Below are positions 15,521 through 37,917 of a DNA stretch of 64,000 bases, in pieces (within the stretch, counting starts at the first letter, position 1; each line of letters begins with the position of its first letter). The notes below the pieces were generated by a model, which searched no databases, was not told the origin of the DNA, and was given only the letters and a program-made list of their open reading frames with translations. The stretch covers positions 128,001 to 192,000 of the forward strand of contig JBBRLQ010000013.1 in the NCBI GenBank assembly GCA_038231275.1, read 5' to 3'. Source of the DNA: Polyangiales bacterium. Lineage in GTDB: Bacteria > Myxococcota_A > Polyangia > Polyangiales > Polyangiaceae. Both the position numbers and the translations under genes were made by a program.

Positions 15521-15535
15521 GCATCACGTGTGCCG
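15521..15535 (-). promoter_or_regulatory. sigma54 (-24/-12) promoter
   Basis: CGGCAC-ACGTG-ATGC on minus strand, 13 nt before the ATG at 15507. Confidence 0.65.
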
Positions 15536-15578
15536 CAAACGGATTGAGGGATTTCCGACGGACACCGAGGCCAATCGA

Positions 15579-15613
15579 GCCTCACGATCTCGGAGGGCGC
15601 GGCGTGGTGAGGC
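15579..15613. promoter_or_regulatory. Putative bEBP enhancer (UAS) copy 1
   Basis: GCCTCAC-N21-GTGAGGC. Confidence 0.55.
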
Positions 15614-15655
15614 CTTCCCGGCCCCACCGACGAGCTGCGGGGCCGGGCGCGCTCG

Positions 15656-15695
15656 CGTCGTTGAACCGGCGGCGGGGGGTGCCGGTTCAACGACG
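15656..15695. terminator. Strong hairpin, likely terminator or insulator of the minus-strand operon
   Basis: Perfect 15-bp inverted repeat CGTCGTTGAACCGGC / GCCGGTTCAACGACG with 10-nt loop; no U-tract. Confidence 0.5.
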
Positions 15696-15790
15696 TCATC
15701 AGGATGAAAGACGCGCCGGCTGAGAAGGTACGAGCCCCGCGTAGTCATGGCGGAGTAGAAATGGAACTTCCGGTCAACCGCCGGCGGGCA

Positions 15791-16741: not shown

Positions 16742-16772
16742 GTGGCCTCGCCGTCGTGTGAATTCGCTCACG

Positions 16773-17516: not shown

Positions 17517-17636
17517 GAGTAGTTGTTTCTCGGGTTGGTTTGATGGGTACGAACGGCGCACCGTTGAAGGACGAGTGCGGTTTGGTCGTGAAAAATGGAC
17601 GGCCGGCGGACACCACGGCCGCCTCGACTGTCCAGC

Positions 17637-23992: not shown

Positions 23993-24074
23993 CGAGGGCC
24001 CCTCGGAGCGTAGGACGCGGCCGTGGATTCGCGGGAATAGGGCGGGAAATTCGCTGCTTCGACTCACGATGCGG

Positions 24075-24089
24075 CGGCACGCCACTTGC
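24075..24089 (+). promoter_or_regulatory. sigma54 (-24/-12) promoter
   Basis: CGGCAC-GCCAC-TTGC, 14 nt before the ATG at 24104. Confidence 0.75.
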
Positions 24090-24103
24090 GATGGTCCGTC
24101 TCC

Positions 24104-25261
24104 ATGCGGCACATCATCGCGTACGTTCTGGTCGGTGCGGGGATTGGTACGGCGTGCTCGAGCGCGGGTCCGAGCGACGTGGGCCCAGGCGCGGCGGCGC
24201 CCGAGGGCGGCATCGCCAGCGATGGCGGGCCGCCCGGCAACAACGACGGCGGCGGCGATCCTGGCGTAGACGGCGCTGGGCCGGCGGCCGACAGCGCGTC
24301 CTCGACCGATGCCCCGCCGACGGGGAACGGTGGCGCGCGCCCTCTCGGCACCGTCACCGACAAGGGCGCGACGCCGAACTGCGTCGCGGGGGCCACGTGC
24401 CGCACGCTCACCGTGGCCTGTCCCGGTGCCGCGCCGCTCGACGTCAACGTCCAGATGCAGGAGCCCACGGTACCGGTTTTGGGCACGATCGTCGTCCACG
24501 ACGGCGGCGGAGGGATCACCTTCTTCGGACGCGGCGCGCTCACCGCCCGATACCTCGCGAAGGGTTACCGGATCGTCGACATGGCATGGGCGAACGATTG
24601 GGAGAAGACATCGATGGGCGCCGGGAGCATCAAGGCGGGCGCGTGCCGGCCGGCGACGGTCTTGAAATGGGCGTTCGACAATGTGCACAAAGGCAGCCGC
24701 GACCAAGGCTTCTGCGCGCAGGGCCAAAGCGGCGGCTCCGGCGCCATGAGCTACGCGCTCGCGGCGTACGGCATGGAAGACTACCTGGACTACGTCATGC
24801 TCACGCAGGGGCCCCCCTTCGGCAGAATGGACTGCGGCTGCGATCCGAGCGCGGCCGGTTGCGCGTCGGTCCCCGCGCTCTGCCCGGAGATCGCGAACGC
24901 TTCGCTAGCATTGCCCGGGGGCAAAATCGACGAGTGGGCAGGCGTCAGCTCGTGCACGGCCGGCATCTCCGCGGCCGACGTGGCGAAGCTCGCAGCAGAC
25001 AGCGTCGCCTCGCCGGACGACGACTTCGACTATCCGAAAACCCACGTGAGCGGTTGGTATTGCGCGATGCGGCCGAACGGCACGACGGGCGGCGGCGCGT
25101 TCTACCTCGCGAAGGTGCAACCCGCGCCGAAGGTCTTCTGCTCGCCGGACTGCGAGGTGGAGAGCATCTATCAGACGACCGCGACGCTCACCGGAGGCGC
25201 GCTCGTCGCAGACCAGATGCTCTCGGAGATGACGGCGGAGTGCGTGCCGCGTCATCGGTGA
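24104..25261 (+). CDS. Cys-rich lipoprotein with alpha/beta-hydrolase-like GxSxG motif (paralog B)
   Basis: GTAC lipobox; GQSGGSG; shares ACRPAT, GFCA, PFGR.D.GC, DYPKT and CVPRH with paralog A. Confidence 0.75.
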   Translation: MRHIIAYVLVGAGIGTACSSAGPSDVGPGAAAPEGGIASDGGPPGNNDGGGDPGVDGAGPAADSASSTDAPPTGNGGARPLGTVTDKGATPNCVAGATCRTLTVACPGAAPLDVNVQMQEPTVPVLGTIVVHDGGGGITFFGRGALTARYLAKGYRIVDMAWANDWEKTSMGAGSIKAGACRPATVLKWAFDNVHKGSRDQGFCAQGQSGGSGAMSYALAAYGMEDYLDYVMLTQGPPFGRMDCGCDPSAAGCASVPALCPEIANASLALPGGKIDEWAGVSSCTAGISAADVAKLAADSVASPDDDFDYPKTHVSGWYCAMRPNGTTGGGAFYLAKVQPAPKVFCSPDCEVESIYQTTATLTGGALVADQMLSEMTAECVPRHR

Positions 25262-25303
25262 TGGCCTAGCTCGGCGAGCTTTGCATGCATAGTGCACTGA
25301 TAG

Positions 25304-25455
25304 TCCGCTACGGTCGACTGGACCGTCGCAGGCGGCGATTACGTCTGGCTGTCGGCAGTGCTCGGGCACACGGACCGCGAGACGACGCAAGGCTACCTCG
25401 ACTCCGCGGCAATCCTCCGCGCGACGTTTCGCGTCCCGCACCCGGCACTTCCTGG
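25304..25455 (+). pseudogene. C-terminal relic of a tyrosine integrase
   Basis: GDYVWLSAVLGHTDRETTQGY retains the LGH..T..Y box; in-frame TAG at 25301 and no upstream domain. Confidence 0.7.
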
Positions 25456-25522
25456 AAGGGGCACGGTAACGGGCAGGCCCATTGTGGAAGCGACGAGTCA
25501 GCGTAAAAAAAGCCAAAAATCA

Positions 25523-25546
25523 GCGTCCCCAGAGGGATTCGAACCC
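25523..25546 (-). repeat. att site: duplicated 3' end of tRNA-Glu
   Basis: GCGTCCCCAGAGGGATTCGAACCC, identical to 36381..36404. Confidence 0.95.
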
Positions 25547-25675
25547 AGAATCGGGTATCGGCTACAACCATGCCAATCTACTCAGTAATGCGCGGACGGC
25601 CTTGATTCTCCGAGCGGCGTAGAAAGTCCTGAGTAGGCCGGATTCGTCCCGAGGAGTCCCAAATGGGCAGGAGCC

Positions 25676-25695
25676 GTGGCACTGGGCTGGCACTG
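25676..25695 (+). repeat. Putative integrase arm-type sites (left)
   Basis: GTGGCACTGGGCTGGCACTG, 18/20 identical to 36316..36335. Confidence 0.7.
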
Positions 25696-25701
25696 GCCAG
25701 A

Positions 25702-26538
25702 CTACTTGGGCAGGTAACCCTTCTGGGTCGCGAAGCCGATCCCTCGCCACTTCTTCCGCTCGTCACCGAGTAGCCGAAACTTGGCCTCGGCGATGGCGTC
25801 AAAGACGCCGAAGTAACGCAAGACGAGTTCCGACGCGAGCACGCCGAAGCCGGCCACATCCCGGAACGCCATCGCGGCGAGCGTCGGAAAGTGCTCGGGC
25901 GAGATGTTCCGCACAATCGCAATCGAAGAACCGTGGGTGCCCCAACAAAGCTGGGCGAAGCGGTCGTCGTAGAAGTCACGGAAACCAAACGGCCCGAAGC
26001 CATCGGCCGCCATCGCATCAGCCTCGAGAGGCCGAGCCGTCCAGCGATCGGGATGGCTGGTTGGACTCCGCCCGGGCCAAACCCGCGCTCGTTCTTCCTG
26101 TATTCGTGTGCTCTCGCGGTCGATGAATGCGACGCGCTCGTGTAGGTGCTCGGGGAGCTGCCGGTTCTCGTAGCATCGCCGTGTCCGCTCCGCCGCCTTG
26201 AGCTTCGCGGAGCGTTCCCACGCCACCATCTTCGCGACGGGAAGATTCGCGCGGTCGTAGTGGAGCAGCGCCAAGTCCACCGTGATCTCGAAGACGGCCC
26301 GGGTGCCAGCGATGACGGCTTGGAAGTCGGAAGGCTGATTCAATTTCTCGAACGTCCCGAGCCACGCGTGGGCGCGCAGAAACGCGCCGTGAACCGTTCC
26401 GTGCTCCTGCCCTTGATCCGCAAAACGCTGGACTAGCGGGCGAACCTTCTCGCGCATGAACTCGTTGACCGTCTTGCAGTCCTCGAAGAAAGCGGTGCCG
26501 AGCGCAAAGGCATCGCCGGTATTCGTTTCGTTCGTCAC
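25702..26538 (-). CDS. Helical cargo protein, DUF5677-like
   Basis: R.VFE helix and FY...F..LC...HG motif; TATACT -10 box 6 nt before GTG. Confidence 0.6.
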   Translation of the reverse strand: MTNETNTGDAFALGTAFFEDCKTVNEFMREKVRPLVQRFADQGQEHGTVHGAFLRAHAWLGTFEKLNQPSDFQAVIAGTRAVFEITVDLALLHYDRANLPVAKMVAWERSAKLKAAERTRRCYENRQLPEHLHERVAFIDRESTRIQEERARVWPGRSPTSHPDRWTARPLEADAMAADGFGPFGFRDFYDDRFAQLCWGTHGSSIAIVRNISPEHFPTLAAMAFRDVAGFGVLASELVLRYFGVFDAIAEAKFRLLGDERKKWRGIGFATQKGYLPK

Positions 26539-26782
26539 AAGCGCAGTATACCTCTCGCCCGGGAACGCGCCCTCGCATCCGCGCGCAACGATTGGCCTCC
26601 GCGGGCTCGATTCGTCCCGAGGCGTCAGAGTACGTCCACGCGCGCCGCCCCTTGCGTTGCTTACGCGAAGTGCCGGACGCATGGTTGTATCCAGTCGCGC
26701 GGCAAACCCGGGTTGCCGGCGTCCTTCGACGATCCGATTCTAGTTACTTCTCGTTTCCAAATTCGTCGGTCATAGGAACAGC

Positions 26783-27019
26783 ATGAGCGCTACCAACCTT
26801 GTCGATATTCGGACGATTCGCCTCCTCGCCGTCGAAGCCGGCGGCCTCGACCCCCGGACCGTGGCGGCCGTCCTTGCGGGACGCGGTAGCCACCTCGCGC
26901 GCCGCGCAGTGGCGGAGGCCATCAAGCGTCTCGGCATGAGCGTCGCGATCCCCGAGCTGGTCTCCGCCGTGCGCGCCGACGCGCCGGGCGCCATCGCCTC
27001 GCGGGGTCGGGCCACGTGA
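26783..27019 (+). CDS. Small HTH-like (Cro/AlpA-role) protein
   Basis: RLLAVEAGGLDPRTVAAVLAG resembles an HTH; AGGA RBS; first gene of + strand operon. Confidence 0.55.
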   Translation: MSATNLVDIRTIRLLAVEAGGLDPRTVAAVLAGRGSHLARRAVAEAIKRLGMSVAIPELVSAVRADAPGAIASRGRAT

Positions 27020-27384
27020 GCTTCGACCGGAACCAGCGCACTCGCGAGCGCATCCTCCTCGAGGCCGCGACCGAGGACTACGAGCGCTCGCAGTGGGCCG
27101 CGCTCGATGCGATGGCGAACGTCACGAGGGAGGCGACCCCGCGCCCGTCGCGTCCGAAAGCCTCCCACGCGCGGATCGACTTTGGCGGCCCGTTGCCGCC
27201 GATCCGCCGCGTGTGCCCATGGCGGCCCATGGGCGGCCTCCGACGACGCGCCACGGGTGGGCGCCAGCCACGACGGGCGACGTCCACGATCACGACGACG
27301 GCGCCGACCTCCGACGGCCCACCAAGAAGCCCAGCTCCAAGAACGCGGCCCCTCGCCCATGATGCCGCCGAAGGTCCGCAGTGA
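27016..27384 (+). CDS. Hypothetical protein
   Basis: 4-bp overlaps with both neighbours. Confidence 0.4.
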   Translation: MSFDRNQRTRERILLEAATEDYERSQWAALDAMANVTREATPRPSRPKASHARIDFGGPLPPIRRVCPWRPMGGLRRRATGGRQPRRATSTITTTAPTSDGPPRSPAPRTRPLAHDAAEGPQ

Positions 27385-27734
27385 GCGCCTCGGACGACGG
27401 TGGCATCCCGGATCCGCCCGCCGATCACATCGAGCCGGCCGGGGAGAACAATCCCAAAGGTGAGGACCTTCGCGCAAAGGCGGCCGACTTCATCCGCAAT
27501 CGGCCGGACGTCTATGCGCTCTTCGAAAGGTTCGCACTGGAGAAGGCGAAGGAACGTCGCCGCTTCGGCGCAAAGCAGCTAGCCGAACGCGTGCGATGGG
27601 AATGCAAGGTCGAGAGTGACGGCGCGGAGGCGTTCAAGATTTGCAACGATCTGATCGCTTACATCGCGCGCCAGTTGGTCGCCGATCATCCGGAGCTCCT
27701 GCCCTTGGTCCGATTCCGAAAGACGCGGTGGTAG
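27381..27734 (+). CDS. Phage-type hypothetical protein
   Basis: P.VY.LFERFAL....RRFGAK...ERVRWE...FKI.N...AY.AR....HP pattern recalled from phage proteins. Confidence 0.65.
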   Translation: MSASDDGGIPDPPADHIEPAGENNPKGEDLRAKAADFIRNRPDVYALFERFALEKAKERRRFGAKQLAERVRWECKVESDGAEAFKICNDLIAYIARQLVADHPELLPLVRFRKTRW

Positions 27735-27736
27735 CG

Positions 27737-28753
27737 ATGCCCGCTCCGTCCTTGCGTCCCGTGAAGCTCCTTAGCGCCGATGATCTCTTCGCCGCCGAGA
27801 AGGCCGTGGAGACGGCGATTCCCGCCCTCGGGATCGGAAGCGGCGCCATCAATCTGTTCGTTGGCGAAAGCTTCGTCGCGAAGAGTTGGGCGCTCCTAGC
27901 CGCCGGCCTGGCCGTCGCCACGGGGCGCCCTCTCTGGGGCGCTTGGAAGACCGTTCCGGGACCGTGGCTCCACCTCGACCTGGAGCAGGGCGCGCGCGTC
28001 ACGAAGTCACGCCTTCGCCGCTTGGCGCGCGGGATGGCCATCTCGGATGAGGAGCTACGCGCCCTCGTTGATCAAGAGGCTGTTCGCGTGGCTGTCTTCC
28101 CGGATCTGCGACTCGACTCGCAAGGGGCGGCCGCCGCGTTTCGACACCTATTCGAGGGCGTGCGCCTCGTGACGGTCGATTCGCTTAGAACGATCGCGGG
28201 CTCGATTGACGAGAACGATTCGCGGATCCGATCGGCCCTCAACGTCCTTAGCTCGGCCGCCGATAAGACGGACGCCTCGGTTTGGGTGATCCACCACGGC
28301 GGGAAACCTCAGGGCGGCGACGGCCCTCCCCGAGCGCGGAAGCACCTCGCCCGCGGAAGCAGCGCGATCGGCGACGAAGCGCAATCGATCTTTACGGCGT
28401 CCTCACTTGGGTTCGGCCGATCACGGGTCCACCACGTCAAGACGAGGAGCCTTACCGCCCTCGTGCCGGACTTCGAGTTGACCGTTTCGGATGTTCCTCG
28501 CGGGGACGATCCCACGTGGGGCGCGCGCGTCTTGCGAGGCGACTCCTCGCCCACGCCGCCCGCCGTCCTTTCTCCGGAAGCGCGCTTGCTTGCTGTCTTG
28601 GAGGGCGGCCCTTTCGCCGGCACGCGTGACGCCTTCCGTGCGGCCGCCGGGATTGGGGCGGCGCCGTTCCGCAGCGCCCTCGCGAAGCTACTCGCGACGG
28701 GCGCGGTGACGGAGGCCGATGGCCACTTCTTCGCGAAGGAGTGCCGGCCGTGA
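27737..28753 (+). CDS. RecA-fold AAA_25/RepA-like helicase
   Basis: Variant Walker A GESFVAKS, LDLE, Walker B VTVDSL, DEND, IHH..K, RGSSAI. Confidence 0.8.
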   Translation: MPAPSLRPVKLLSADDLFAAEKAVETAIPALGIGSGAINLFVGESFVAKSWALLAAGLAVATGRPLWGAWKTVPGPWLHLDLEQGARVTKSRLRRLARGMAISDEELRALVDQEAVRVAVFPDLRLDSQGAAAAFRHLFEGVRLVTVDSLRTIAGSIDENDSRIRSALNVLSSAADKTDASVWVIHHGGKPQGGDGPPRARKHLARGSSAIGDEAQSIFTASSLGFGRSRVHHVKTRSLTALVPDFELTVSDVPRGDDPTWGARVLRGDSSPTPPAVLSPEARLLAVLEGGPFAGTRDAFRAAAGIGAAPFRSALAKLLATGAVTEADGHFFAKECRP

Positions 28754-28770
28754 GGAGGCTCGGTTGGACG

Positions 28771-28875
28771 CCGACCGACCGACTCGCTCCTAGAGAAATA
28801 GGAGTCAGTCGGTCTTACAGAGGAGAGGAGACGGACCGACTCACACACCCCCTAGGGAGAGTCGGGTCGGTCGGG
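28771..28875. repeat. Putative replication origin (GACCGACTC iteron-like inverted repeats)
   Basis: GACCGACCGACTC..GAGTCAGTCGGTC and GACCGACTC..GAGTCGGGTCGGTC directly after the helicase. Confidence 0.55.
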
Positions 28876-29047
28876 CGAAGGCGCGAACCACGTATGGCCA
28901 CCAAGTGACCATATACGTATGCCATTAGGACTACGGGGGATTTTGCCTCCAAGGGGAGCTGTCTTTCTAGTGTCCGTAACTCCCTGAAACTGCTCTGGGG
29001 TCCCGGGATGTAGTCCCGCAATGCCACGAAGATGTGAGGGATCGAAT

Positions 29048-29551
29048 ATGGGATCGAAGTCAACGCTTTCGGAGTCGAAGCGCGAGAAGATTTGGAAGCT
29101 CCACACGGTGGAGCGCTGGGGTTACGACCGCATCGCGGCGCGCCTCAATGTTCCGCGCGGCCAAGTGGAGCGCTACGTAAAGTCGCGCGCGAGGACGGAG
29201 GCCAAGGCGCCTCACCTCGCGGCCGGCGAGGTCCCCGAGCTTCCCGCGGACGCAACTTCCGTTGACCGGGCACGTGCGCAGGTGCGCCGCCTCGAGATCA
29301 TGATCAAAACGGGCGCCGCGGACCCCGCGAAGACGTCGAAGGACGTTTCGATGCTGGAGAACGCGTTGGGTGCGGCGTCCACGCGCCTCAGCCGGCTCCT
29401 CGGGGAGTTCGAGGTCACCAGCTCGCAGATCGTCCGGTCAACGCACTTTCAGAGCCTCCTAGGCGCCTTCCAGCGCGCCATCGGGGACGACCACGGGGTG
29501 TGGCAGCGATTCGAGGCCGAGTGCGCGCGACTGATGGGAGAGCGGAAATGA
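29048..29551 (+). CDS. HTH plus helical protein, terminase small subunit-like
   Basis: N-terminal HTH (WGYDRIAARLNVPRGQVERYV) followed by helices; position after ori. Confidence 0.45.
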   Translation: MGSKSTLSESKREKIWKLHTVERWGYDRIAARLNVPRGQVERYVKSRARTEAKAPHLAAGEVPELPADATSVDRARAQVRRLEIMIKTGAADPAKTSKDVSMLENALGAASTRLSRLLGEFEVTSSQIVRSTHFQSLLGAFQRAIGDDHGVWQRFEAECARLMGERK

Positions 29552-29904
29552 CAGCGAAGAAACAGAGGCGGCCGGCGAGGGCGAAGGCGAAAGCGAGGAA
29601 GCCGGCCACGATCATCGGCGAGGTCCTGCGTTGGGTACGCCGTGAGATTGCGCGCATCGATGAAGAGGCGGCCGCGAAACGTCGCCGGCTCACGCGCACC
29701 GTCGCCACGTCCACGGATTTCGCCGAACGTAGGGCGGCTCTTGCCGAGCTGCGAAAGGACTTTGGCGATCCGCCGCCCGACGACGCCCCGGCCGCCTCCG
29801 CGCCGCGTCCTCTGGTAACGGCGGCGGAGATTGAAGCCGCGCGCGTCGAACACATCGCCCTCGTGGCTTGGGCAAACGCGCATCGGATGCCTGGAATTCA
29901 CTAA
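29548..29904 (+). CDS. Hypothetical basic protein
   Basis: ATGA overlap, GGAG RBS. Confidence 0.55.
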   Translation: MTAKKQRRPARAKAKARKPATIIGEVLRWVRREIARIDEEAAAKRRRLTRTVATSTDFAERRAALAELRKDFGDPPPDDAPAASAPRPLVTAAEIEAARVEHIALVAWANAHRMPGIH

Positions 29905-29969
29905 ACGGAAATACTTGTTTCAAACCGCAACGGAACGAAGTCACGAAGTCACGAAAGGACGAATCGATT

Positions 29970-30392
29970 ATGAAGGCGAACATGATGCAGGCGACGAGTT
30001 ACGATGACCTGGTTCAAAGGTGGACGGCGCGTTGCGAAGAACTGTTGAAGTCCTCTGATCCGGAGGATGTCGAGTTGGCGAAGAAGGAGCTCGCTCGCCT
30101 CCGAGAAGAGCCTTCCGAGGACGAGGCGAAGGAGGCGGCCAAAGCCCGCGCGCGCGCCTCGAGGCCGGTCCTCGCGTCGAGCCACGTTTCGGCGGCCGAA
30201 AGCGCCGATTCGATTCTTGCCCGGCGGCGGATCGAGGAAGAGCAGAACTTCATTTCCGCGAAGATGATGGGTCCGCGAGAAGCCGGGATTCGAAGCGAGG
30301 ACGGCGGCCGCGCGCTCACGTTCGGCCCCATGTCGAAATCGGAAGCCGCGCGGCGGCTTCAGGAGCTTGCGCGTCAGGGGAAAGTCCGATGA
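29970..30392 (+). CDS. Hypothetical charged helical protein (scaffold-like?)
   Basis: AAGGA RBS; Glu/Ala/Lys-rich helices. Confidence 0.6.
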   Translation: MKANMMQATSYDDLVQRWTARCEELLKSSDPEDVELAKKELARLREEPSEDEAKEAAKARARASRPVLASSHVSAAESADSILARRRIEEEQNFISAKMMGPREAGIRSEDGGRALTFGPMSKSEAARRLQELARQGKVR

Positions 30393-30583
30393 GCAACGAG
30401 GCCGCTGGAAACAATCCCTTCTACGCTCCAAACTGGTCGCCTTCGATCGAACAGAGGCCGACGCATCACCCGGCGCCAAATGCGACGCCGCCGCCTCCCA
30501 CGATCCCGCCGGTCGTTGGCAGTCCCACGCCGATCCCGCCGAGCGAGACTTTGCCTCCACGCCACGAGGAGGCCGGCGAATGA
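30389..30583 (+). CDS. Small Pro-rich hypothetical protein
   Basis: ATGA overlaps on both sides. Confidence 0.45.
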   Translation: MSNEAAGNNPFYAPNWSPSIEQRPTHHPAPNATPPPPTIPPVVGSPTPIPPSETLPPRHEEAGE

Positions 30584-31308
30584 CTGCCCCGTCTCTTAGC
30601 GCGTCGTCGCACGTCGAGCGCGTGGCGGCCCTCGAGGCGACGCACTCCCATCTTGACGGCGAGCACGCGCAGGCCGTCCGCAAACTGGACGAAGAGCGCC
30701 TCCGTCTGTCGCGCGAACATGCCGCCGCGAAGGCGGCCGCCTCCGAGGCCGCACGCGCGAAGCACGACGAGCTCGACGCAAAGATCGGAGCGGAGGCGAG
30801 GGCCGTGCTCTTCCCGCTCCTCGCCGACTTTGCGAAGGGCGATTCGTCACGGCGTCCAATCGCCGGGAAGATTCGGGACGCCTGGATCGCGCTCGACACG
30901 AAGGCGCGCGATTGCCTGGGAAACAATCTTGATCGCCGGCTGCTGGCGCTCGGAATTGCGGCCGCCCATGGCCTCGAATCGGTGGCCGCGTCGTGTGAGT
31001 TCTTGCGATACGGCGGGGCGAGTCAGGCAATGGCATCGGTCGATACCGTCGTGAGCCGCATCGAAGCAGCCATCGCGCTTCCCGCCGTTGAGGATGCCCT
31101 CCACGCGGCGGAGGTCGCAATCGCTACCAGCGTGTCGGGTCGAGGGTTTCACGCGGCCCCGTGGAGGGCGGCCGCGTTCAGGTTCGCGATGCGCGCCTCC
31201 AATGATCGCGCCGCGGACGAGGCCGATCGCAACGTGCCGCAAGTCTCAAAGGCGGTGGTCACGTTCGGCCACTTGCAGGGCGGCCGCGGTCCTCGGGTGA
31301 CGACGTGA
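30580..31308 (+). CDS. Hypothetical coiled-coil protein
   Basis: GAGGAGG RBS, ATGA overlap. Confidence 0.65.
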   Translation: MTAPSLSASSHVERVAALEATHSHLDGEHAQAVRKLDEERLRLSREHAAAKAAASEAARAKHDELDAKIGAEARAVLFPLLADFAKGDSSRRPIAGKIRDAWIALDTKARDCLGNNLDRRLLALGIAAAHGLESVAASCEFLRYGGASQAMASVDTVVSRIEAAIALPAVEDALHAAEVAIATSVSGRGFHAAPWRAAAFRFAMRASNDRAADEADRNVPQVSKAVVTFGHLQGGRGPRVTT

Positions 31309-31475
31309 CCGGCGGCGGACCGATCGTGTCGATGTGGTCCCTCGTGGACCGCGACGGACTCATCATCGCGTCCTCACTCGATCGTGCGGAGCTCCTCGCC
31401 GCGAGACGTGAGGGAGAGGCGATCGTATACACGCGTAGGCCGAGGCGACGGCCGCACCCCGAACAGGCGCGTTGA
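31305..31475 (+). CDS. Small hypothetical protein (56 aa)
   Basis: GTGA overlap with upstream stop; MTGGGPIVSMWSLVDRDG... Confidence 0.4.
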   Translation: MTGGGPIVSMWSLVDRDGLIIASSLDRAELLAARREGEAIVYTRRPRRRPHPEQAR

Positions 31476-31476
31476 C

Positions 31477-31608
31477 GTGGCGCGCAACACCCCGCCTCGT
31501 GACGGCAATTCGCGAGCGCGTCGAATCAAGAGATGGCGGTTGCTTCGTGAGCTACGCCGGCTTCGGCGCGAGGTGAGCCGTCTCGCAACGCTCGTCTTAG
31601 ATGCCTAA
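31477..31608 (+). CDS. Small Arg-rich hypothetical protein
   Basis: GTG one base after the previous stop. Confidence 0.3.
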   Translation: MARNTPPRDGNSRARRIKRWRLLRELRRLRREVSRLATLVLDA

Positions 31609-31785
31609 CTTTCGCGGCGTCGCCTCTCCCATGGCGTGGCGCCGCACGCGGTTTCGATTCGTTGGGGTTCGTAGCCGCGTCCCCGTCGCCCTCCCGCGTC
31701 CCCGGTTTCCGATCCTTTCCGGGGCGCGGGCTGGGCGGCACCTATCGCGCTTCGTTCTGTCCTCAACTCACGTAGGAGTCTGTCT

Positions 31786-32385
31786 ATGGGCATCTTTCAC
31801 GTTCCTGGCCTCTCTGACGCGGTAGGTCCGAATCCGCTCGTAACGTCCTTCCCCGCCGTCAATACGTTTACGATCGCCTCTTTCACGATGCCCGGGAAGT
31901 GGACTTTACTGGACGCTCCCAAGACGTTCGGCTGGCAGATCATGAAGGGTATTGCGCTTGACGGCGCGACGGCCTCTCCTACAGGGGAAGGGCTTATCAC
32001 CGCAAAGTTTCGCGGCGAGATTTGGGAGCCTAGCGACTTCGCTCTATTCAAGGAAATCCGAAAGGCCATCCTCGTAAAGCCCGTGTTCTCGCTTGGAGGC
32101 TCGCTACTCACCGGCGCAATGGGCATTGACCATCCCGAGCTCAAAGCGTTGGGAGTTACCAACGTGGTAATGAGCGAGCTTCGGCCCATGATTCAGGAGC
32201 GCGGCGGGAAGTGGGTTTGCCACGTCGATTTCCTCCAGTACCGGCGGCCGACTCCTGCTCTTCCGGCCCCGAAACTCGTGGTGCCGGACCATGCGCCTCC
32301 GATGCCCTCCGCGCAGAACGCCTTGGAGCTCGAAGCGCAGAAGTTGACGGCGCAGATCGACGCTCAGAAAGCGAAGCTTAAATGA
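31786..32385 (+). CDS. Putative phage tail tube-initiator/baseplate-like protein
   Basis: W...KG..L.GAT...TG..L..AKF...IWE...I.HP.L..LG...VV...W...F.QYR pattern recalled from myxobacterial prophage tail genes; TAGGAG RBS. Confidence 0.55.
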   Translation: MGIFHVPGLSDAVGPNPLVTSFPAVNTFTIASFTMPGKWTLLDAPKTFGWQIMKGIALDGATASPTGEGLITAKFRGEIWEPSDFALFKEIRKAILVKPVFSLGGSLLTGAMGIDHPELKALGVTNVVMSELRPMIQERGGKWVCHVDFLQYRRPTPALPAPKLVVPDHAPPMPSAQNALELEAQKLTAQIDAQKAKLK

Positions 32386-32630
32386 GCGAAGGCGACGACA
32401 GGGAAGCGGAGTCGAAGACGGTCACGCGCCGCTACGTGATCACGGCGTGGGACGCGGCCGTCGGCATGTTCGATGGGGTATGCGACGTCACGGGCGAGGA
32501 AGTGCACGTCGCGCCGATCCTTCCGGGCACCAAGATCGGGGCGGTCGTCGAAGTAACCACGACGCCGACCGTGCGCGGCAGGTGGCGCCTCGTGACGCGC
32601 GTGCTTCCGTCCGCAGAGATGCCCTCCTGA
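32382..32630 (+). CDS. Small beta-rich hypothetical protein
   Basis: ATGA overlap upstream and TGATG coupling downstream. Confidence 0.55.
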   Translation: MSEGDDREAESKTVTRRYVITAWDAAVGMFDGVCDVTGEEVHVAPILPGTKIGAVVEVTTTPTVRGRWRLVTRVLPSAEMPS

Positions 32631-33169
32631 TGGCGCCCCGTAAGACGCGGACGGCCTCCGCCCCGACCGGCATCTCGTCTAACGACGACGACGCTTACCC
32701 GTTGTACGAGCCGCCGCGGCGAACCTCTCGGGGATGCATCGCATCGGCGTACCTTCGCAAGGCGTGGAAAGACATGAAGCGGCGATGCCTCGACCCCACC
32801 CATTGGAACTACCCAAAGTACGGGGCGCGCGGCATCACGATTCACCAGCCGTGGATCGTCTCCTTCGACGCCTTCGCGGAATTGATGGGCGAGCGGCCTT
32901 CGCCGCGTCACTCGCTCGACCGCATCGACAACGATGGGAACTACGAGCCGGGGAACGTGAAGTGGTCGTCTCGCGAGGAGCAGATGAACAACGTGAGGAG
33001 CAATCGCCACCTCACCTTTCGAGGGCGCACGATGACGATGGCGGAATGGGCGAAGGAGCTGGGGTGCGATCGGCGCGTGATCTTCACCCGCTTGAAGTTG
33101 GGGTGGAGTGTGGAAGACGCGCTCGGAACGCCGCTAGCACCTCGTTGCCGTACGGCTTCGAAGAAATAA
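32630..33169 (+). CDS. HNH-type endonuclease (phage homing-endonuclease-like)
   Basis: W..MK.RC....Y..YG.RGI, SLDRIDNDGNYEPGNVKW...EQ.NN. Confidence 0.85.
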   Translation: MAPRKTRTASAPTGISSNDDDAYPLYEPPRRTSRGCIASAYLRKAWKDMKRRCLDPTHWNYPKYGARGITIHQPWIVSFDAFAELMGERPSPRHSLDRIDNDGNYEPGNVKWSSREEQMNNVRSNRHLTFRGRTMTMAEWAKELGCDRRVIFTRLKLGWSVEDALGTPLAPRCRTASKK

Positions 33170-33194
33170 AGCGCCGGCCCAATGACCCCGCCTT

Positions 33195-33213
33195 CCGGTT
33201 AAATATTAACCGG
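33195..33213. promoter_or_regulatory. AT-rich operator-like palindrome upstream of xis-int operon
   Basis: CCGGTTAA-ATA-TTAACCGG. Confidence 0.55.
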
Positions 33214-33360
33214 TTACGCATGATCGGCGCCCGAGCGGTGCGCCTCGAAGGCTTTGGGCGCATACCGTCCGCGTCTCGCGCACCGTACAGTAGGGGAAGT
33301 GAGGCCGGCGACGCGCAAACGTCCCGACCTCTGGCCACCCCAACCGAAGATTGAGGCGAC

Positions 33361-33537
33361 ATGAAGACGTTACCCGATACCAACCCGCTCCGCTCGTTGG
33401 CAGAAACCGTGACGGCCCTCAAAGGCGCCGCCGATCCCGGCGACAGGCGCCTCCTCATGCGCGCCGGCCTCCGCGTCGCGTCGATGCTCCTCGAGGGCGT
33501 GGCGGGCCAGTTGCGCGCCATGGGACGGGCACTATGA
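33361..33537 (+). CDS. Small helical hypothetical protein (58 aa)
   Basis: GAGG RBS; ATGA overlap with next gene. Confidence 0.5.
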   Translation: MKTLPDTNPLRSLAETVTALKGAADPGDRRLLMRAGLRVASMLLEGVAGQLRAMGRAL

Positions 33538-33872
33538 AGAAGCCTCGTAATCCGGCGACGTCTCCGAAGCCGCCCGCCGCCGTCCTCCCGCTCCGGCGCG
33601 AGCCCACGGAGGCGATGCGCCACGAGGTCGTGCGCCAACTGAACGCGCTGGGCTTCACCATGATGGTGTGCGCCACGTGTGGCGTGACGGAGAACGACGG
33701 CGGCGACGAGCCGGTCACGTGCGGCGAGATGCTCTGCCACGCGTGCGTCGAAGAGCACGAGGCGGAGTGCCAACCGTGCGCCGAAGCCGTCGCCGCCTTC
33801 GTCACGCCGTGGAACCTCGCACGCGTGAGGCGCTTGCATAGCGAGGACGCCGACGACGGGGCCGGGACGTGA
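33534..33872 (+). CDS. Small Zn-finger-like protein
   Basis: CATC...C....CHAC...H...C..C. Confidence 0.55.
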   Translation: MKKPRNPATSPKPPAAVLPLRREPTEAMRHEVVRQLNALGFTMMVCATCGVTENDGGDEPVTCGEMLCHACVEEHEAECQPCAEAVAAFVTPWNLARVRRLHSEDADDGAGT

Positions 33873-34459
33873 GTGGTTGGATCTTCCCCACTGCGGACGC
33901 CCCTCGCCTTCCGCGTCGCCTCCTCCTCTTGGGCTCCGAGCGCGTGGAGCACGAGGGCCACTTGCACCTCGCCCCCGTGGAGGCGCTCGACCTCGTGTCT
34001 CTAGAGATGCGCTTCGGGGTCGCCGATCCGCGTCTCGCCGCGCTGCATTGGCGATGGGTCTGCGAGCGCGAGGTGGACGCCGACGCGAAGGGCGCTACGT
34101 ACGCGACGGAGGACGTGGAGCCTCACGAGCTCGCCGGGCTCGCCCTCGTCAACGCCGCGATGGGCGCCCGCGTCCCGTTGGCGATGGTGCCGGACCTCGT
34201 AGGGCGCGAGGTGACGCGGGAGGGATGCATCGCGCTCGGGTTCCTGAACTCCGCGGAGGCCACGAAGGCGGCCCCACCTTCGGCCCTCATTGACGCCGCC
34301 GAGGCCGCCCAGATTCTTGGGATCACGGAAGCCGCACTGCGTTCGCGGCTCGCGCGCGGCGAGATCCCAAACGCCTCCGTCAAGCGCACGGGAAGGCGCG
34401 TCCAGTACATCCGCGCGAGGCTCCAAGCGTGGGTCGAAGATTCGAAGGGGAAGCGATGA
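33869..34459 (+). CDS. Excisionase-like protein (C-terminal winged HTH)
   Basis: LIDAAEAAQILGIT...LR...RGEIP...GRRV.Y...L.AW; directly upstream of integrase. Confidence 0.75.
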   Translation: MSGWIFPTADAPRLPRRLLLLGSERVEHEGHLHLAPVEALDLVSLEMRFGVADPRLAALHWRWVCEREVDADAKGATYATEDVEPHELAGLALVNAAMGARVPLAMVPDLVGREVTREGCIALGFLNSAEATKAAPPSALIDAAEAAQILGITEAALRSRLARGEIPNASVKRTGRRVQYIRARLQAWVEDSKGKR

Positions 34460-35592
34460 CCGTCAAGGTTCGCCCGCTTCCGAACGGAAAGATGCGCGTA
34501 GACATTCGGTTCCGCTGGCCGGATGAGAGTGTCTTCCGGGAGCGGCCCAACGTGGGCGGGATGACCCTCGCGCAGGCGAGGAAGTGGGGCGAGCGAAGGG
34601 AGGCGGAGCTACGCGACGCAGGCAAGGCCGCGCACGAGGCTGCAACCGCGGCGGCAACCCCTGCCCTCACCTTCGGGGACTTCGTCAAAGACCGATGGTG
34701 GCCGGTCTACCCCCCGAGCAAGGGCAACGCGCATACGACAATCAAAGAGAAGCGCATCCACCTGGACGCGCATCTACTACCCCACTTCGGCGGCCTTCCG
34801 ATGACGGACGCCACCTTCGCGAAGGAGGCGCTCGACTCGTTCGCCGCGACGATGGCGGCCAAGACGGTCGGCAAGGTGAAGCGGAAGCCCCTCAGTGCCA
34901 AGCGCATCAACAACGTGATGGCAACGCTGGGGCGCATCCTCGCGTCCGCCCACGAATGGGGCGCCCTCGCGACCCTGCCGCGCATGCCGAAGCGCAAGGT
35001 GGACGAACCAGCGTGGGACTACTTCAACGGCGAGGAAACGCGCCTCGCGGTCGCGGCGACGCGTAGCGCCGAAGAGAGGGCGCTCCTTCTCTTTGCGTTC
35101 CGCACGGGCGCGCGCGCCGGGGAGCAACTCGCCTTCCTTTGGGAGGACCTCGACTGGCATGCGAGGCAAGTCATCTTCCGCCGCTCCTCTTCGGACGGAG
35201 TCGTAGTCGAGCGCACGAAGTCCAAGCGCATTCGGCGCGTGCCGATGGGGCCGGCGTTGGAGGCCGCCCTGAAGGCGATCAAGCACCTCCGCGGGCCGCT
35301 CGTGTTCTGCCAAGAGGACGGCGCTCCGTTGACGCTCGACATGCTCCACGAGCGCCTTTGGGGCGCGTGTCGTCGCGCCGGCCTTCGTCGCATCAAGTGG
35401 CACGAGACGCGGCACTCCTACGCGAGCCAGCTCGTGATGCTCGGGACGCCGTTGAGGCAAGTGCAAGAGTGGCTCGGCCATTCCACGATCCAGATGACGA
35501 TGAGGTATGCGCACCTCGCGCCGGGCGGAGGCAGGGAGTACGTGGCCGCGTTAGATCGGTCGCCCTCGCTAGGAGCTACAGGTACGTCCTAG
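34456..35592 (+). CDS. int: Tyrosine recombinase/integrase
   Basis: TGARAGE (R), TKS (K), HETRH (HxxR), LGH, MRYAH (Y): full catalytic set. Confidence 0.95.
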   Translation: MTVKVRPLPNGKMRVDIRFRWPDESVFRERPNVGGMTLAQARKWGERREAELRDAGKAAHEAATAAATPALTFGDFVKDRWWPVYPPSKGNAHTTIKEKRIHLDAHLLPHFGGLPMTDATFAKEALDSFAATMAAKTVGKVKRKPLSAKRINNVMATLGRILASAHEWGALATLPRMPKRKVDEPAWDYFNGEETRLAVAATRSAEERALLLFAFRTGARAGEQLAFLWEDLDWHARQVIFRRSSSDGVVVERTKSKRIRRVPMGPALEAALKAIKHLRGPLVFCQEDGAPLTLDMLHERLWGACRRAGLRRIKWHETRHSYASQLVMLGTPLRQVQEWLGHSTIQMTMRYAHLAPGGGREYVAALDRSPSLGATGTS

Positions 35593-36296
35593 CTTGCGGG
35601 CGACTTCTTCTTTCTGTTCTCCCGGATCACGTCGAGCTTCTTGGAGACGTGGCTGAGCTTCGCCGCGACGTTCGGTAGAGCGTAAAGGGTCTTGATGGTG
35701 CTTTCGATAATGTCGAACGCGGCGTGGAGTTCCGGCTGTTCGGGAGCCTTAAGCTCGTGCGCGGCGTCGTTGCCCAACAGGCGATGCAAGTGGAGAAAGT
35801 CCTTCTGTCGTGCGGCAATCGCCCCGGAGGCGACTAGATCGTCGATCCGTTCTTCTAAATTCTTCCCTTTAGCCCCTTGGTCGGCGCACATGGCCTCGAC
35901 GGTTGCGCGCAATCCGATGGTGGCAAGGATCCGTGAGTCGGCGTTCAGCGCGGTCAGCGCCTCACAGTAGATTCGCATCAGCTTCGCGGGGAGCAGGATG
36001 CCCTCGAACGGAAACCCGCGGCCCTCGTTCGGGGCCGGGTAGAATGTCTGGTTCAGCCACGGCGAGTCGTCGGGCGCCACCTCGGTACTGTTCCACCGAG
36101 CCTCTTCGAAGCACACAGTCGCGCAACCCCGGCACCGCAGGATTCGGTAATCCTCTCCCCAGGACACCGGCGACTCCTCCCCGAAGTCCTGTTCGTGCTC
36201 GTCCTCGATCTCGGCGAGGACGTCATGGCTCGTCCCACGACGGCACGTCCGACAGGTGGCGTTCGTGATCTTCGGCGTCTTCTTGGCGGCCGCCAT
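35589..36296 (-). CDS. DUF4145 (HEPN-like) protein with N-terminal Zn-ribbon
   Basis: CRTC/CRGC; LRATVE, L.ERIDDL, RLLGNDAAH motifs. Confidence 0.8.
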   Translation of the reverse strand: MAAAKKTPKITNATCRTCRRGTSHDVLAEIEDEHEQDFGEESPVSWGEDYRILRCRGCATVCFEEARWNSTEVAPDDSPWLNQTFYPAPNEGRGFPFEGILLPAKLMRIYCEALTALNADSRILATIGLRATVEAMCADQGAKGKNLEERIDDLVASGAIAARQKDFLHLHRLLGNDAAHELKAPEQPELHAAFDIIESTIKTLYALPNVAAKLSHVSKKLDVIRENRKKKSPAS

Positions 36297-36315
36297 CTCG
36301 CGCTCCCCGTCCCCG

Positions 36316-36335
36316 GTGGCACCCGGCTGGCACTG
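36316..36335 (+). repeat. Putative integrase arm-type sites (right)
   Basis: GTGGCACCCGGCTGGCACTG; two TGGCAC units 11 bp apart. Confidence 0.7.
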
Positions 36336-36381
36336 ACCCTACACGTTCGCCTCATCCAGCCCAGTTCTCGCTCAAACGAGG

Positions 36382-36454
36382 CGTCCCCAGAGGGATTCGA
36401 ACCCTCGTTAGCGACGTGAAAAGCCGCGGTCCTGGGCCTCTAGACGATGGGGAC
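36382..36454 (-). tRNA. tRNA-Glu (TTC)
   Basis: GTCCCCA/TGGGGAC acceptor stem, GCGGC-TTTTCAC-GTCGC anticodon arm, GAGGG-TTCGAAT-CCCTC T arm; CCA not encoded. Confidence 0.97.
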
Positions 36455-36545
36455 GGAGTAACGAAGCAGGTAGGACGGGGCGCAACCTAGCAGAACCCGC
36501 GCGAGACGTGTACTCCGCCGCGCATCGTGCTACTCGGCCGTCACG

Positions 36546-37910
36546 ATGATGCGCGCGCGACCCTATTTCCAGGCCTCTTCCGCGATCAAGCCGACCGCGC
36601 TCCTCGCGCTCGTAGCAGGCCTCGTCGCGACGCCGCTCGCGTGTGGCGGGTCCGACGGGAGCGCGAACGACGGCGCCTCCCCCGACGCCGGCGCAGCCGA
36701 GGGCAGCGCGATCGACGCGCCGACGACGCCTCCGGGTGATGGCGGAGGGCCCCCGCTCGACGCGCCGAATACGAACGACGCGCCCGCGGCCAACGACGCG
36801 CCCGCCGATGGCCCGAGCCTCGGTTGCCCGCGCGCGCCCGCCGCCGCCGATCGGCCGCGGCGCGTCGTCGTCTCGCACCCCTTCGCGGTCGACGGCGGTA
36901 AGGCCACGCTCTTCGAGGTGCTGAGCCTCTCGCAAGCGGGCACGCTCACGAGGCCAGCAGCGCCCGTCACGTTCCAGATGGGGACGGCGCTCGACGCACC
37001 GATCGTCTTCACGCCGGACGGCGAGATCGGTCTGGTCTCACAGGACGACGGATCGATCGGCGTCTTCAAGCTCCCGGCGACGGGCGCCCCCACCGTGATC
37101 CACGCGGCGTTCGCCGGCAATTTCTACGCAGGCGGGTTGGTGCTCACGCCCGACGGGTCCACCGTGTATGTCCTCGACAGCAACGTCCGGAAGAACGGCG
37201 GCGGCGTCTACCGGATCCCCATCCACTGCGACGGCACGCTCGGCACCGCCACGCTCGTCGTGCCGGGCAGCGGCGCGAGCGCGATGGCGCTCCTCCCTGG
37301 CGATCCGACGAAGGCGGTCCTCGGCGCGACGGCGGCGTTCGACTCGGCGGTGAACCAGGATGTTCACCTCGTCGACCTGGCGGCGCAGACGCGCATCGCG
37401 AGCGCGTCCGTATTTCTCGATGGAATGGCCAGCGTGGCGTCCCTCGCCGTCGCGCCGGACGGAAAGTTCGCGATCCTCGCGGACAACAGCTTCAGCGCCG
37501 GCAGTCGCATCGCCGCGGTCGCGATCACACCGTCCTTCGTGCCGGCGGGTGGCATCCTCGCGACGCCGTTCCCGGATGGCGTCGCCGTGTCTCCGTACGA
37601 CGACTCCGCGATCGTGCTGAACGACGACTCGACCGATCAGATCCACGTGCTCACCTACGATCCGGCGAACGCCGCGGCGCCATTCGCGATCAAAGGCGAG
37701 CTCGTCTACAAATTCGGCAAGCCGCAGATTCCGATCTCGATCTCCCTCATCGATCGCGGCGCGCTGAAGGGCACCACGTTCGTCGGCGAGAACATCGCCG
37801 TGCGGCAGCTCACGTTCGGCGCGGGTGGCGCGGTGACCGACACGGCGAAGCTCGTCTTCCCGGGTGGCGGGAACGAGACGATCATCGGCGTCGTCGGCGT
37901 CCAGCCCTGA
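36546..37910 (+). CDS. Beta-propeller lipoprotein
   Basis: PLAC lipobox, D/A/G linker, repeated TPDG/APDG blades. Confidence 0.75.
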   Translation: MMRARPYFQASSAIKPTALLALVAGLVATPLACGGSDGSANDGASPDAGAAEGSAIDAPTTPPGDGGGPPLDAPNTNDAPAANDAPADGPSLGCPRAPAAADRPRRVVVSHPFAVDGGKATLFEVLSLSQAGTLTRPAAPVTFQMGTALDAPIVFTPDGEIGLVSQDDGSIGVFKLPATGAPTVIHAAFAGNFYAGGLVLTPDGSTVYVLDSNVRKNGGGVYRIPIHCDGTLGTATLVVPGSGASAMALLPGDPTKAVLGATAAFDSAVNQDVHLVDLAAQTRIASASVFLDGMASVASLAVAPDGKFAILADNSFSAGSRIAAVAITPSFVPAGGILATPFPDGVAVSPYDDSAIVLNDDSTDQIHVLTYDPANAAAPFAIKGELVYKFGKPQIPISISLIDRGALKGTTFVGENIAVRQLTFGAGGAVTDTAKLVFPGGGNETIIGVVGVQP

Positions 37911-37917
37911 GGCGAGC

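Follow-up and report, generated by a model that had tools for sequence, protein, structure and literature searches.

A candidate minimal phage satellite in a tRNA-Glu gene of a Polyangiales bacterium and small elements with related helicases in Myxococcota

Introduction

The core gene set of phage-inducible chromosomal islands (PICIs) and the size of the P4-like satellites (median 10 kb) have been set out in a survey based upon SatelliteFinder, and in the sections of that survey used here genes for anti-phage defence are noted to lie often between the attachment site (att) and the integrase gene (int) of satellites (PMC10085698). According to the same sections, clusters with three of the marker genes (Type C) may represent satellites, elements that are defective or mobile elements of another kind, and the sections record merged capsid-protease genes in the capsid-forming PICIs (cfPICIs) of Firmicutes, with HNH endonucleases as a frequent component (PMC10085698). 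Integrative elements that are packaged in virions and have no capsid gene, some of them with an HNH or small terminase (terS) gene, are described as virion-encapsidated integrative mobile elements (VEIMEs) in the part of their report drawn upon here (PMC9618062), and the packaging of concatemers into full-size helper capsids is proposed there (PMC9618062) and, for the PICMIs (phage-inducible chromosomal minimalist islands), in the corresponding part of a second report (PMC10803314). The present work deals with a stretch of 64,000 nucleotides from the genome of a Polyangiales bacterium (assembly GCA_038231275.1, contig JBBRLQ010000013.1, positions 128,001 to 192,000), which is referred to as the window and in which an island of 10,858 bp is integrated in a tRNA-Glu(UUC) gene. 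An earlier reading of the DNA letters (the original prediction) had proposed that this island is a myxobacterial phage satellite. Based upon the comparisons reported below we lean, with moderate confidence, towards regarding it as a phage satellite of a minimal kind, comparable to the PICI/P4 and VEIME/PICMI elements.

Myxobacteria are social predators with large genomes, and their phage biology is barely known. In our literature search no paper combining "phage satellite" and "Myxococcota" was found. The main text of the SatelliteFinder survey contains no mention of "Myxococc-" or Deltaproteobacteria (PMC10085698). Across the main text and references of a 2026 preprint on myxobacterial viruses satellites appear only in the reference list, and the mobilome methods given there are directed at prophages, integrons, integrative and conjugative or mobilizable elements, insertion sequences and composite transposons.

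Boundaries, recombination genes and end cargo of the element

The only tRNA gene in the window is an intact tRNA-Glu(ttc) on the minus strand (positions 36380–36454), which was detected by ARAGORN and also by Rfam. Its 3'-terminal 24 nt (36381–36404) form the right att copy and are repeated perfectly, in direct orientation, at 25523–25546, which forms the left att copy. This is the sole 100% repeat of at least 20 nt within positions 24000–38000; it starts at the T-arm of the tRNA gene and continues to the 3' end, and the bases neighbouring the two copies differ. The start-to-start spacing of the copies is 10,858 bp, and we estimate that about 1e-7 pairs of 24-mers of this kind would be expected by chance in 14 kb. 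P4 also integrates into a tRNA gene. The GC content of the element (0.657) is lower than that of the remaining window (0.686) and the third-position GC signal is weaker in the element than in its flanks. The 44 gene calls of the flanks include many cellular genes, such as those for the glycine-cleavage T protein, Ser/Thr kinases, an FHA-sigma54 activator, ribosomal protein S20 and histidine kinases, and no phage family was matched by any of these calls within the 64-kb window. The boundaries of the element and the foreign origin of the insert are thus solid, as they rest upon the att repeat and tRNA gene, the GC contrast and the cellular flanks.

For all 19 candidate open reading frames (ORFs) of the element, protein families were sought in Pfam, PHROGs, NCBIfam and PADLOC, and the statements on families below refer to these scans unless another search is named. 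A tyrosine integrase of 378 aa (34456–35592, plus strand) was identified by PF00589 (1.5e-26) and phrog_1 (9.8e-54), and the R, K, HxxR, H and Y positions are visible by eye in its translation. Directly upstream of it lies the gene for a Xis/AlpA-like protein (33929–34459, plus strand), in which an unassigned N-terminal domain is followed by a C-terminal HTH_17 helix-turn-helix (HTH) domain at residues 141–191 (PF12728, 3.8e-7; the excisionase family phrog_9668, 2e-7; also phrog_66 and the MerR-like phrog_2474). Genes in reverse orientation are present at both ends. The one at the right end (35589–36296, minus strand), which sits between int and the att site/tRNA gene, encodes a defence-like DUF4145 protein (PF13643, 7.5e-19; PADLOC PD-T7-4, 3.1e-9; phrog_1305, 5.7e-33). 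The one at the left end (25702–26682, minus strand) encodes a protein of 278–326 aa with a coding signal in its third-position GC (GC3), a sub-threshold similarity to DUF5677 (E 0.0018) and no sequence match in the PDB. The features upon which the original prediction had built its account of the integration, namely a perfect 24-bp att duplication reaching from the T-loop to the 3' end of tRNA-Glu, an intact integrase, a xis gene and reverse-oriented cargo at both ends, were all recovered by these analyses.

Helicase and origin-like region

The element encodes a hexameric helicase of the RepA type, similar to that of plasmid RSF1010 (338 aa, 27737–28753, plus strand; AAA_25, 1.4e-23). When a profile made from this protein and its relatives was compared with the PDB, RSF1010 RepA (1g8y, 4.7e-13) was the sole match, and among the PHROGs the protein matched only the helicase part of primase-helicases. 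The Walker B, HH.GK and RGSS motifs are conserved, but in place of the canonical GxxxxGKT the Walker A motif is GESFVAKS. The database copy of the protein (P0001) is likewise 338 aa long; one of its relatives (P0006) also contains PF12802, and the C-terminal tail of the helicase may be a winged helix.

Directly after the stop codon of the helicase gene there is an origin-like region (28756–29020). It consists of four iterons of 9–13 nt arranged as two inverted pairs (28773–28877), which are followed by a stretch of about 48–50% GC (28900–28979). The 9-mer GACCGACTC, with one mismatch or none, has five matches within 96 bp (28777–28872) against an expectation of 0.06, whereas over the whole window it occurs 41 times against an expected 43, and is thus not generally enriched. 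In the origins of Staphylococcus aureus pathogenicity islands (SaPIs) iterons flank an AT-rich stretch directly 3' of the rep gene, and the present arrangement is similar. The helicase followed by ori-like repeats that the original prediction had listed was confirmed by the match to a helicase family, the clustering of the iterons and the lower GC content of the adjoining stretch.

Elements with related helicases in Myxococcota

Relatives of the element were sought with a helicase alignment in species-representative genomes, and 26 loci (designated L001 onwards) with a helicase 29–45% identical to that of the window were found. All but one of these (25 of 26) come from records titled Polyangiaceae, Myxococcales, Anaeromyxobacter, Sorangium, Labilithrix, Myxococcota or "delta proteobacterium". 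The remaining one, L013 (JAEYWK010000044.1), is titled "Proteobacteria bacterium", and its helicase pairs in the tree with that of the Polyangiaceae locus L011 (support 100/99); its title is probably imprecise or out of date, or else reflects a binning problem.

A tRNA gene is present near the helicase in 10 of the 25 loci that were scanned for it, and in eight of these ten an exact repeat of 23–48 nt from the 3' part of the tRNA gene delimits an element of 7.6–12.7 kb. The targets of these eight elements are tRNA-Gln (L008, 7.6 kb), tRNA-Asp (L015, 9.8 kb), tRNA-Met (L017, 10.0 kb), tRNA-SeC (L018, 10.7 kb), tRNA-Arg (L021, 10.9 kb), tRNA-Ser (L009, 11.7 kb), tRNA-Pro (L016, 12.5 kb) and tRNA-Asn (L014, 12.7 kb). 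For the tRNA genes of L006 and L020 no att repeats were found, those of L006 having been tried in L005 as well. The layout seen in the window, in which the helicase is followed by co-oriented ORFs, int and a tRNA gene on the minus strand, is shared by six of the eight (L008, L009, L014, L015, L018 and L021).

The gene content of the eight elements was examined by Pfam for all 110 of their ORFs and by PHROGs for 81 (helicases, integrases, resolvases and a few short ORFs being omitted). Genes for head or packaging functions are present in five of them (L008, L016, L017, L018 and L021); by Pfam and PHROGs no such match was found in L009, L014 or L015, and none of the 81 ORFs matched a PHROG of the tail or lysis categories. 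A large terminase is encoded in L016 and L017, and terS-like genes occur in L008, L021 and, in a weaker form, L018, in all three of which they are the first ORF after the helicase. Both L018 (7633–18306) and L021 (8622–19512) encode a fusion of Peptidase_S78 and Phage_capsid_4 (5e-44 and 6e-41; phrog_4523, about 1e-130), and both have the appearance of satellites of the capsid-forming kind in Myxococcota. They are located at different tRNA genes of one metagenome-assembled genome (MAG), their helicase and capsid regions are 82–84% identical, and their integrases have diverged; the presence of such near copies at two different tRNA genes in one MAG indicates recent mobility. The smallest element, L008 (610–8191), has about six ORFs and represents a very small satellite-like unit. 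Among its ORFs are int, one for a terS-like protein (phrog_7344, 9e-13) and a helicase ORF of 794 aa whose long N-terminal part is unassigned. In L017 the large terminase is divided between two overlapping ORFs (10867–12670; Terminase_6N, then Terminase_6C/phrog_27743), which points to a frameshift or to a fault in the assembly, and serine recombinase genes are present inside this element and just outside it. Proteins of 464 and 479 aa in L016 have no sequence match in the PDB.

In a tree of the helicases the protein from the window has a long branch and is the sister of those of L001–L006 (support 100/98). Within this clade L002, the closest relative by helicase for which the gene context is available, has xis-int, a large terminase (terL) and a head protease around its helicase gene. 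The loci L005 and L006, which are on two MAG contigs, have element regions that are 98% identical over 3.9 kb and identical helicases; in L006 a tRNA-Glu(ctc)/tRNA-Gln pair is present at a distance of about 3 kb from this region. Besides the helicase, which is common to all 26 loci, the integrase is shared with four loci by tblastn and belongs by blastp to a cluster from 12 loci; a protein 25% identical to the 199-aa protein described in the next section is present in L015 (pairwise E 9e-7), and L011 has a weak match to a 78-aa ORF. In a blastx comparison of the whole element all 30 matches fell in the helicase or int, and broken remnants of the relatives' genes were not observed. Taken together, and judged by their sequences, these elements are a loose assemblage united by replicon type, size class and type of target rather than a tight family. 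The suggestion that the locus represents a new satellite family from myxobacteria is in this respect partly upheld, as similar small tRNA-borne elements do exist in the phylum, but what they share is mainly the helicase and integrase and the word "family" applies to them only loosely.

Tail-tube-fold protein and HNH endonuclease

Two genes between the helicase and int had escaped the original prediction, whose gene inventory was in this regard incomplete. One of these (31786–32385, plus strand) encodes a protein of 199 aa. Homologue searches in large databases were carried out for this protein, the helicase and the 242- and 167-aa proteins described below, the other small ORFs being compared with the family libraries only, and they yielded 54 homologues of the 199-aa protein that are up to 72% identical to it. 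An AlphaFold2 model based upon 52 aligned sequences had a pLDDT of 83. With this model all the matches found by Foldseek in the PDB were to proteins of the tail-tube fold, which comprise baseplate proteins of the phages Mu, Milano and 7-7-1, diffocin, the Photorhabdus virulence cassette (PVC), the antifeeding prophage (AFP), the pyocin tube, the neck and tube of a gene transfer agent (GTA) and the Dit protein of SPP1; nine matches were at E <= 1e-3 (TM-scores 0.37–0.56). In BFVD it had 95 matches at E <= 1e-3, to Dit-like, DUF6046, DNA circulation N-terminal, contractile injection system (CIS) tube and tail tube proteins, and the matches from both databases together span TM-scores of 0.37–0.57. 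In Pfam, the PHROGs and the sequences of the PDB the protein has no match. Based upon the predicted structure it appears to have the beta-sandwich fold of the phage tail-tube/Dit/tube-initiator proteins, and since no sequence family was matched this assignment is made at the level of the fold only.

None of the 53 other homologues of the tube-fold protein is on a contig longer than 51,160 bp, and 15 of them are on contigs of 41–51 kb. The copy from the window is on a contig of 227,736 bp, and homologues of the helicase are found on contigs of up to 886 kb. Because the homologues are absent from contigs above 51,160 bp, we infer that the usual home of the tube-fold gene is a replicon no larger than about 50 kb, which would most simply be a phage genome. 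In tblastn searches of the phage and plasmid collections the protein had no match, nor did the whole element in a megablast search of the same collections. Since the helicase homologues lie on contigs of other sizes, the element does not appear to be a plain deletion derivative of the replicons that carry the tube-fold gene. The original prediction had named a simple deletion from full prophages as an outcome that would tell against it, and this was not encountered among the comparisons made, in which tube-fold and helicase homologues are on contigs of different sizes.

The second gene (32630–33169, plus strand) encodes an HNH endonuclease of 179 aa of the phage homing type (phrog_3377, 2.8e-49), which by tblastn has matches in 1038 phage records, all of them below 60% identity.

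The putative terS gene

A 167-aa protein with an HTH motif and a coiled coil (29048–29551, plus strand) had earlier been labelled terS-like. Its family matches are weak and to HTH families only (E 0.003–0.008; Sigma70_r4_2, E 0.0055, and PHROG HTH families); no homologue was found in a search of 5.8 billion proteins, and comparison with PDB sequences gave only noise (E 0.12). In a protein-language search its nearest Atlas clusters (score 0.94) contain mostly viral hypothetical proteins of about 168 aa and HTH_28/23 proteins, which we take as a lead only. Like the terS-like genes recognized by PHROGs in L008, L018 and L021, the gene follows the helicase as the next ORF. A terS identity was not supported on comparison by BLASTP with the terS-like proteins of L008 and L021 (E 0.33 and 0.35), and no terS family was matched. 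The label was not confirmed. Among all 19 ORFs no terS family was matched at E <= 0.01 except phrog_57, with E 0.0033, on the HTH of the Xis-like protein.

Other open reading frames and intergenic regions

The plus strand of the element contains about 15 ORFs, 13 of which have coding support, and these form four blocks, with gaps of 100, about 290, 65 and 477 bp between them. Many neighbouring ORFs have stop and start codons that overlap by 4 nt and are preceded by Shine-Dalgarno (SD)-like sites, and the coding signal of several is weak. The tight coupling of co-oriented genes that had been claimed is thus present, but the claimed number of about 20 and the notion of a single continuous core did not hold up. 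Apart from the integrase and the Xis-like protein, members of PHROG families are encoded by the genes matching phrog_13625, phrog_3377 and phrog_1305. In agreement with the original prediction, no capsid, portal, terL, lysis or conjugation families and no primase or CI-type repressor were matched by any of the 19 ORFs. Likewise no relaxase, type IV coupling protein (T4CP) or partition family was matched in the library scans, and no capsid-morphogenesis (size-redirection) gene and no sequence profile for tail or holin proteins in Pfam or the PHROGs. A scan of the element for sigma-70 promoters gave no sites, and the number of terminator-like sites (six) is below the mean of shuffled sequences (8.9).

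The left-end cargo gene is separated from the plus-strand genes by a divergent intergenic region (26683–26782), in which 80-nt windows at 26727–26737 have 45–47.5% GC and no sigma-70 consensus was matched; it is probably a promoter/operator region. The plus-strand set begins with a 78-aa ORF (26783–27019), whose weak phmmer match (2.7e-4) is to a 78-aa ORF of L011 that lies upstream of a primase-helicase gene. It is followed by a 122-aa ORF (27016–27384) with a weak frame signal, 4-nt overlaps with both neighbours and no family match, and by a gene for a 117-aa protein of the phage family phrog_13625 (27381–27734; 7.5e-14). Downstream of the 167-aa protein, a basic protein of 118 aa is encoded at 29548–29904, where the start codon (ATG at 29548) is preceded by GGGAGAG and overlaps the stop codon of the upstream gene. 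The spacer of 65 bp that follows (29905–29969) contains 2.6 copies of the 8-bp tandem repeat ACGAAGTC (29935–29955), and the 80-nt window starting at 29895 has 40% GC, which is the minimum for the element; this low-GC spacer with its repeat (29895–29975) may be an internal operator or promoter. An ORF call at 29970–30392 (plus strand) corresponds to an acidic protein of 140 aa.

The next plus-strand gene (30580–31308) encodes a 242-aa protein that is predicted to be entirely helical, with one helix of 75 residues (AlphaFold2 pLDDT 85). It has 22 distant homologues; its model had no fold match in the PDB at E <= 0.001, and its Atlas score (0.76) is uninformative. That this gene travels together with the tube-fold gene was considered and rejected, as none of ten contigs bearing its homologues matches the contigs of the tube-fold family in size. 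Between the two genes is a stretch of 477 bp (31309–31785) with a weak frame signal and no coding signal. It was considered as a structured RNA, e.g., one like the P4 CI RNA, and this was rejected, as it folds no better than shuffled sequences (z -1.0 and -0.2) and has no match in Rfam; a role as a regulatory or packaging site is speculative. An 82-aa protein (32382–32630, plus strand; GC3 0.87) is coupled to the tube-fold gene by a 4-nt overlap. The gene adjoining that of the Xis-like protein on its upstream side (33534–33872, plus strand) encodes a cysteine-rich protein of 112 aa with several CxxC-type pairs, which by eye resembles a zinc ribbon and matches no family. Outside the element, a GC dip to 0.59–0.65 was observed within DNA of 0.68–0.72 GC at window positions 15000–18000, where a phosphoesterase-family gene and ORFs without family matches are present; this may be another foreign patch.

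Discussion

The idea that the element is a phage satellite gains from the comparison with its relatives, in which head and packaging genes occur beside the same kind of helicase, and it loses the terS assignment upon which it was partly based, no gene for the hijacking of a helper having been identified. If the element is a satellite, the integrase and the Xis/AlpA-like HTH_17 protein would excise a circle of 10.86 kb by recombination between the 24-bp cores, and this circle would replicate from the iterons and lower-GC origin directly 3' of the RepA-type helicase gene. As no primase is present, the host or the helper would have to supply the priming. The DNA of the element would then be packaged into the particles of a helper phage, and in view of the fact that no capsid-remodelling gene was recognized, the packaging of concatemers into full-size heads seems as plausible as the formation of small capsids. 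Candidates for interaction with the helper would be the HTH/coiled-coil, HNH and tube-fold proteins, with the 477-bp stretch as a putative pac or cos site. The contigs of up to 51 kb that bear tube-fold homologues may represent the helper lineage, and the tube-fold gene they have in common with the element is the best pointer to it. The end genes, above all the DUF4145/PD-T7-4-like one, would be cargo, probably for anti-phage defence, that pays for the element's keep.

A number of observations count against the satellite interpretation. In the sequences available, no gene for terS, capsid remodelling or helper derepression is apparent, and no helper prophage was found when looked for in the 64-kb window. 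A gene with a tail fold is atypical for satellites, and tail genes are a "forbidden" marker in the SatelliteFinder models as these are described in the sections used here (PMC10085698). By tblastn the helicase has no match in 50,697 phage records. The argument from the head genes of the relatives is indirect, because little beyond the helicase and integrase is common to them and the element, and the closest helicase clade (L001–L006) has a different gene order and no delimited member. A primase, which the element lacks, is adjacent or fused to the helicase in L001, L004, L009, L010 and L011. Lastly, the Walker A motif of the helicase reads GESFVAKS (with Ala before the Lys), compared with GQxYxGKT in six relatives, and its branch is the longest of its clade (1.0 vs 0.06–0.24); these two features may reflect relaxed constraint and are compatible with decay.

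The last of these points would suit a decaying element, as would the missing primase, the 477-bp stretch devoid of coding signal, the several weakly coding ORFs and the surroundings of the L002 helicase, which comprise xis-int, terL and a head protease. The element would then be what is left of a small prophage or of a larger satellite that formed capsids; it would be immobile, its head and packaging genes would have been lost, and the tube-fold and HNH genes would be leftovers. We consider this unlikely, in view of att repeats that are perfect over 24 nt, integrase motifs that are intact, ORFs that are tightly coupled and provided with SD-like sites, a size within the 7.6–12.7 kb of the relatives, and a blastx comparison in which no broken pieces of the relatives' genes were seen. 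It is also possible, but unlikely, that the element is an integrative and replicative island of a non-phage kind, plasmid-like or a defence island, that excises and replicates by means of its RepA-type helicase and iterons, is not packaged and spreads rarely, by some other route or only vertically, with the phage-like genes as acquired passengers. The closest solved relative of its helicase is indeed a plasmid protein, RSF1010 RepA, and in phages the helicase had no tblastn match, but it had none in 72,556 plasmid records either. Similarly, no packaging gene has been identified in the element, but neither was any relaxase, T4CP, partition or conjugation family matched; and while three of the eight delimited relatives (L009, L014 and L015) have no head or packaging gene, the other five possess capsid or terminase genes. 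The HNH endonuclease is of a widespread homing type that moves by itself and the cargo at both ends looks like defence, which would favour such an island, but the tube-fold protein and two other proteins of PHROG families have to be accommodated as well.

It is highly improbable that the element is a whole autonomous virus of very small size, or a producer of GTA-like particles, with structural genes diverged beyond recognition. For such an entity one could point to the 140-, 242-, 118-, 82- and 112-aa ORFs, to which no function is assignable, and to the one tail-tube-fold protein; however, 10.9 kb is too small for the morphogenesis gene set of a tailed phage, no ORF is of the size of a portal or terminase, and the 242-aa protein is all-helical and not HK97-like. 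A bolder extension of the satellite interpretation, which we put forward as a long shot, is that a hitherto undescribed satellite assemblage extends throughout Myxococcota on the RepA-type helicase replicon, ranging from 7.6-kb elements with terS only through capsid-forming to capsid-less members, and that the member in the window would exploit its helper in a manner that satellites are not known to use, by means of a helper-derived tail-tube/Dit-fold protein inserted at the tail or neck of the helper's particle instead of by capsid redirection or terS.

Were the satellite interpretation correct, the range of satellites would widen to a new phylum with these small tRNA-borne elements, of which some have a capsid gene of their own and others lack one, and a natural series would be available for examining how capsid-forming and minimal satellites interconvert. 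A candidate helper lineage would be indicated by the contigs of up to 51 kb that carry the tube-fold gene, and in its defence-like cargo the element would bring myxobacteria a mobile source of resistance to phages.

Comparison with known systems

The element resembles the PICIs in being a site-specific island in the size range of about 10–15 kb with int, an HTH protein of the AlpA/Xis type, a replicase of its own with an adjacent origin, cargo, and no structural or lysis genes. It differs from them in that no terS, capsid-morphogenesis gene, primase or Stl/CI-type repressor was detected, in that its whole plus-strand gene set runs toward int and not away from it, and in its tail-tube-fold gene. 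With regard to the genes by which PICIs are defined, the integrase is present, the regulator and replicase are partly represented and terS and capsid morphogenesis are missing; by the logic of SatelliteFinder, as set out in the sections of the survey used here, the element would at best be a Type C cluster with three core genes, which is an ambiguous class.

With the P4-like satellites the element shares its size of about 11 kb, int, an AlpA-type regulator, a replicon based upon a helicase and defence cargo between int and att. No match to Psu, Delta, Sid, epsilon or alpha was found in the Pfam and PHROGs scans of the 19 ORFs, in which the presence of profiles for these proteins was not checked; the helicase lacks the primase part of alpha, the host phylum is different and the similarity is at the level of domains only. 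RSF1010 has a helicase of the same family (AAA_25; 1g8y, 4.7e-13) with iterons beside its gene, whereas the element has no RepB-type primase, RepC-type initiator or mobilization genes and is integrated by a tyrosine integrase.

A likeness to the cfPICIs is seen in the relatives L018 and L021 (10.7–10.9 kb), where a protease/capsid fusion and a terS-like gene accompany the same kind of helicase and tail or lysis matches are absent. The element in the window, in contrast, has no capsid, portal, protease or connector match, and its HNH endonuclease belongs to a homing-type family, by which a candidate role in packaging is not implied. The VEIMEs and PICMIs are defined by their presence in virions, whereas for the element packaging is a prediction, and their hosts and habitats are different; nevertheless, as small integrase-bearing elements with replication genes and without a capsid gene, it is these that come closest to it in content.

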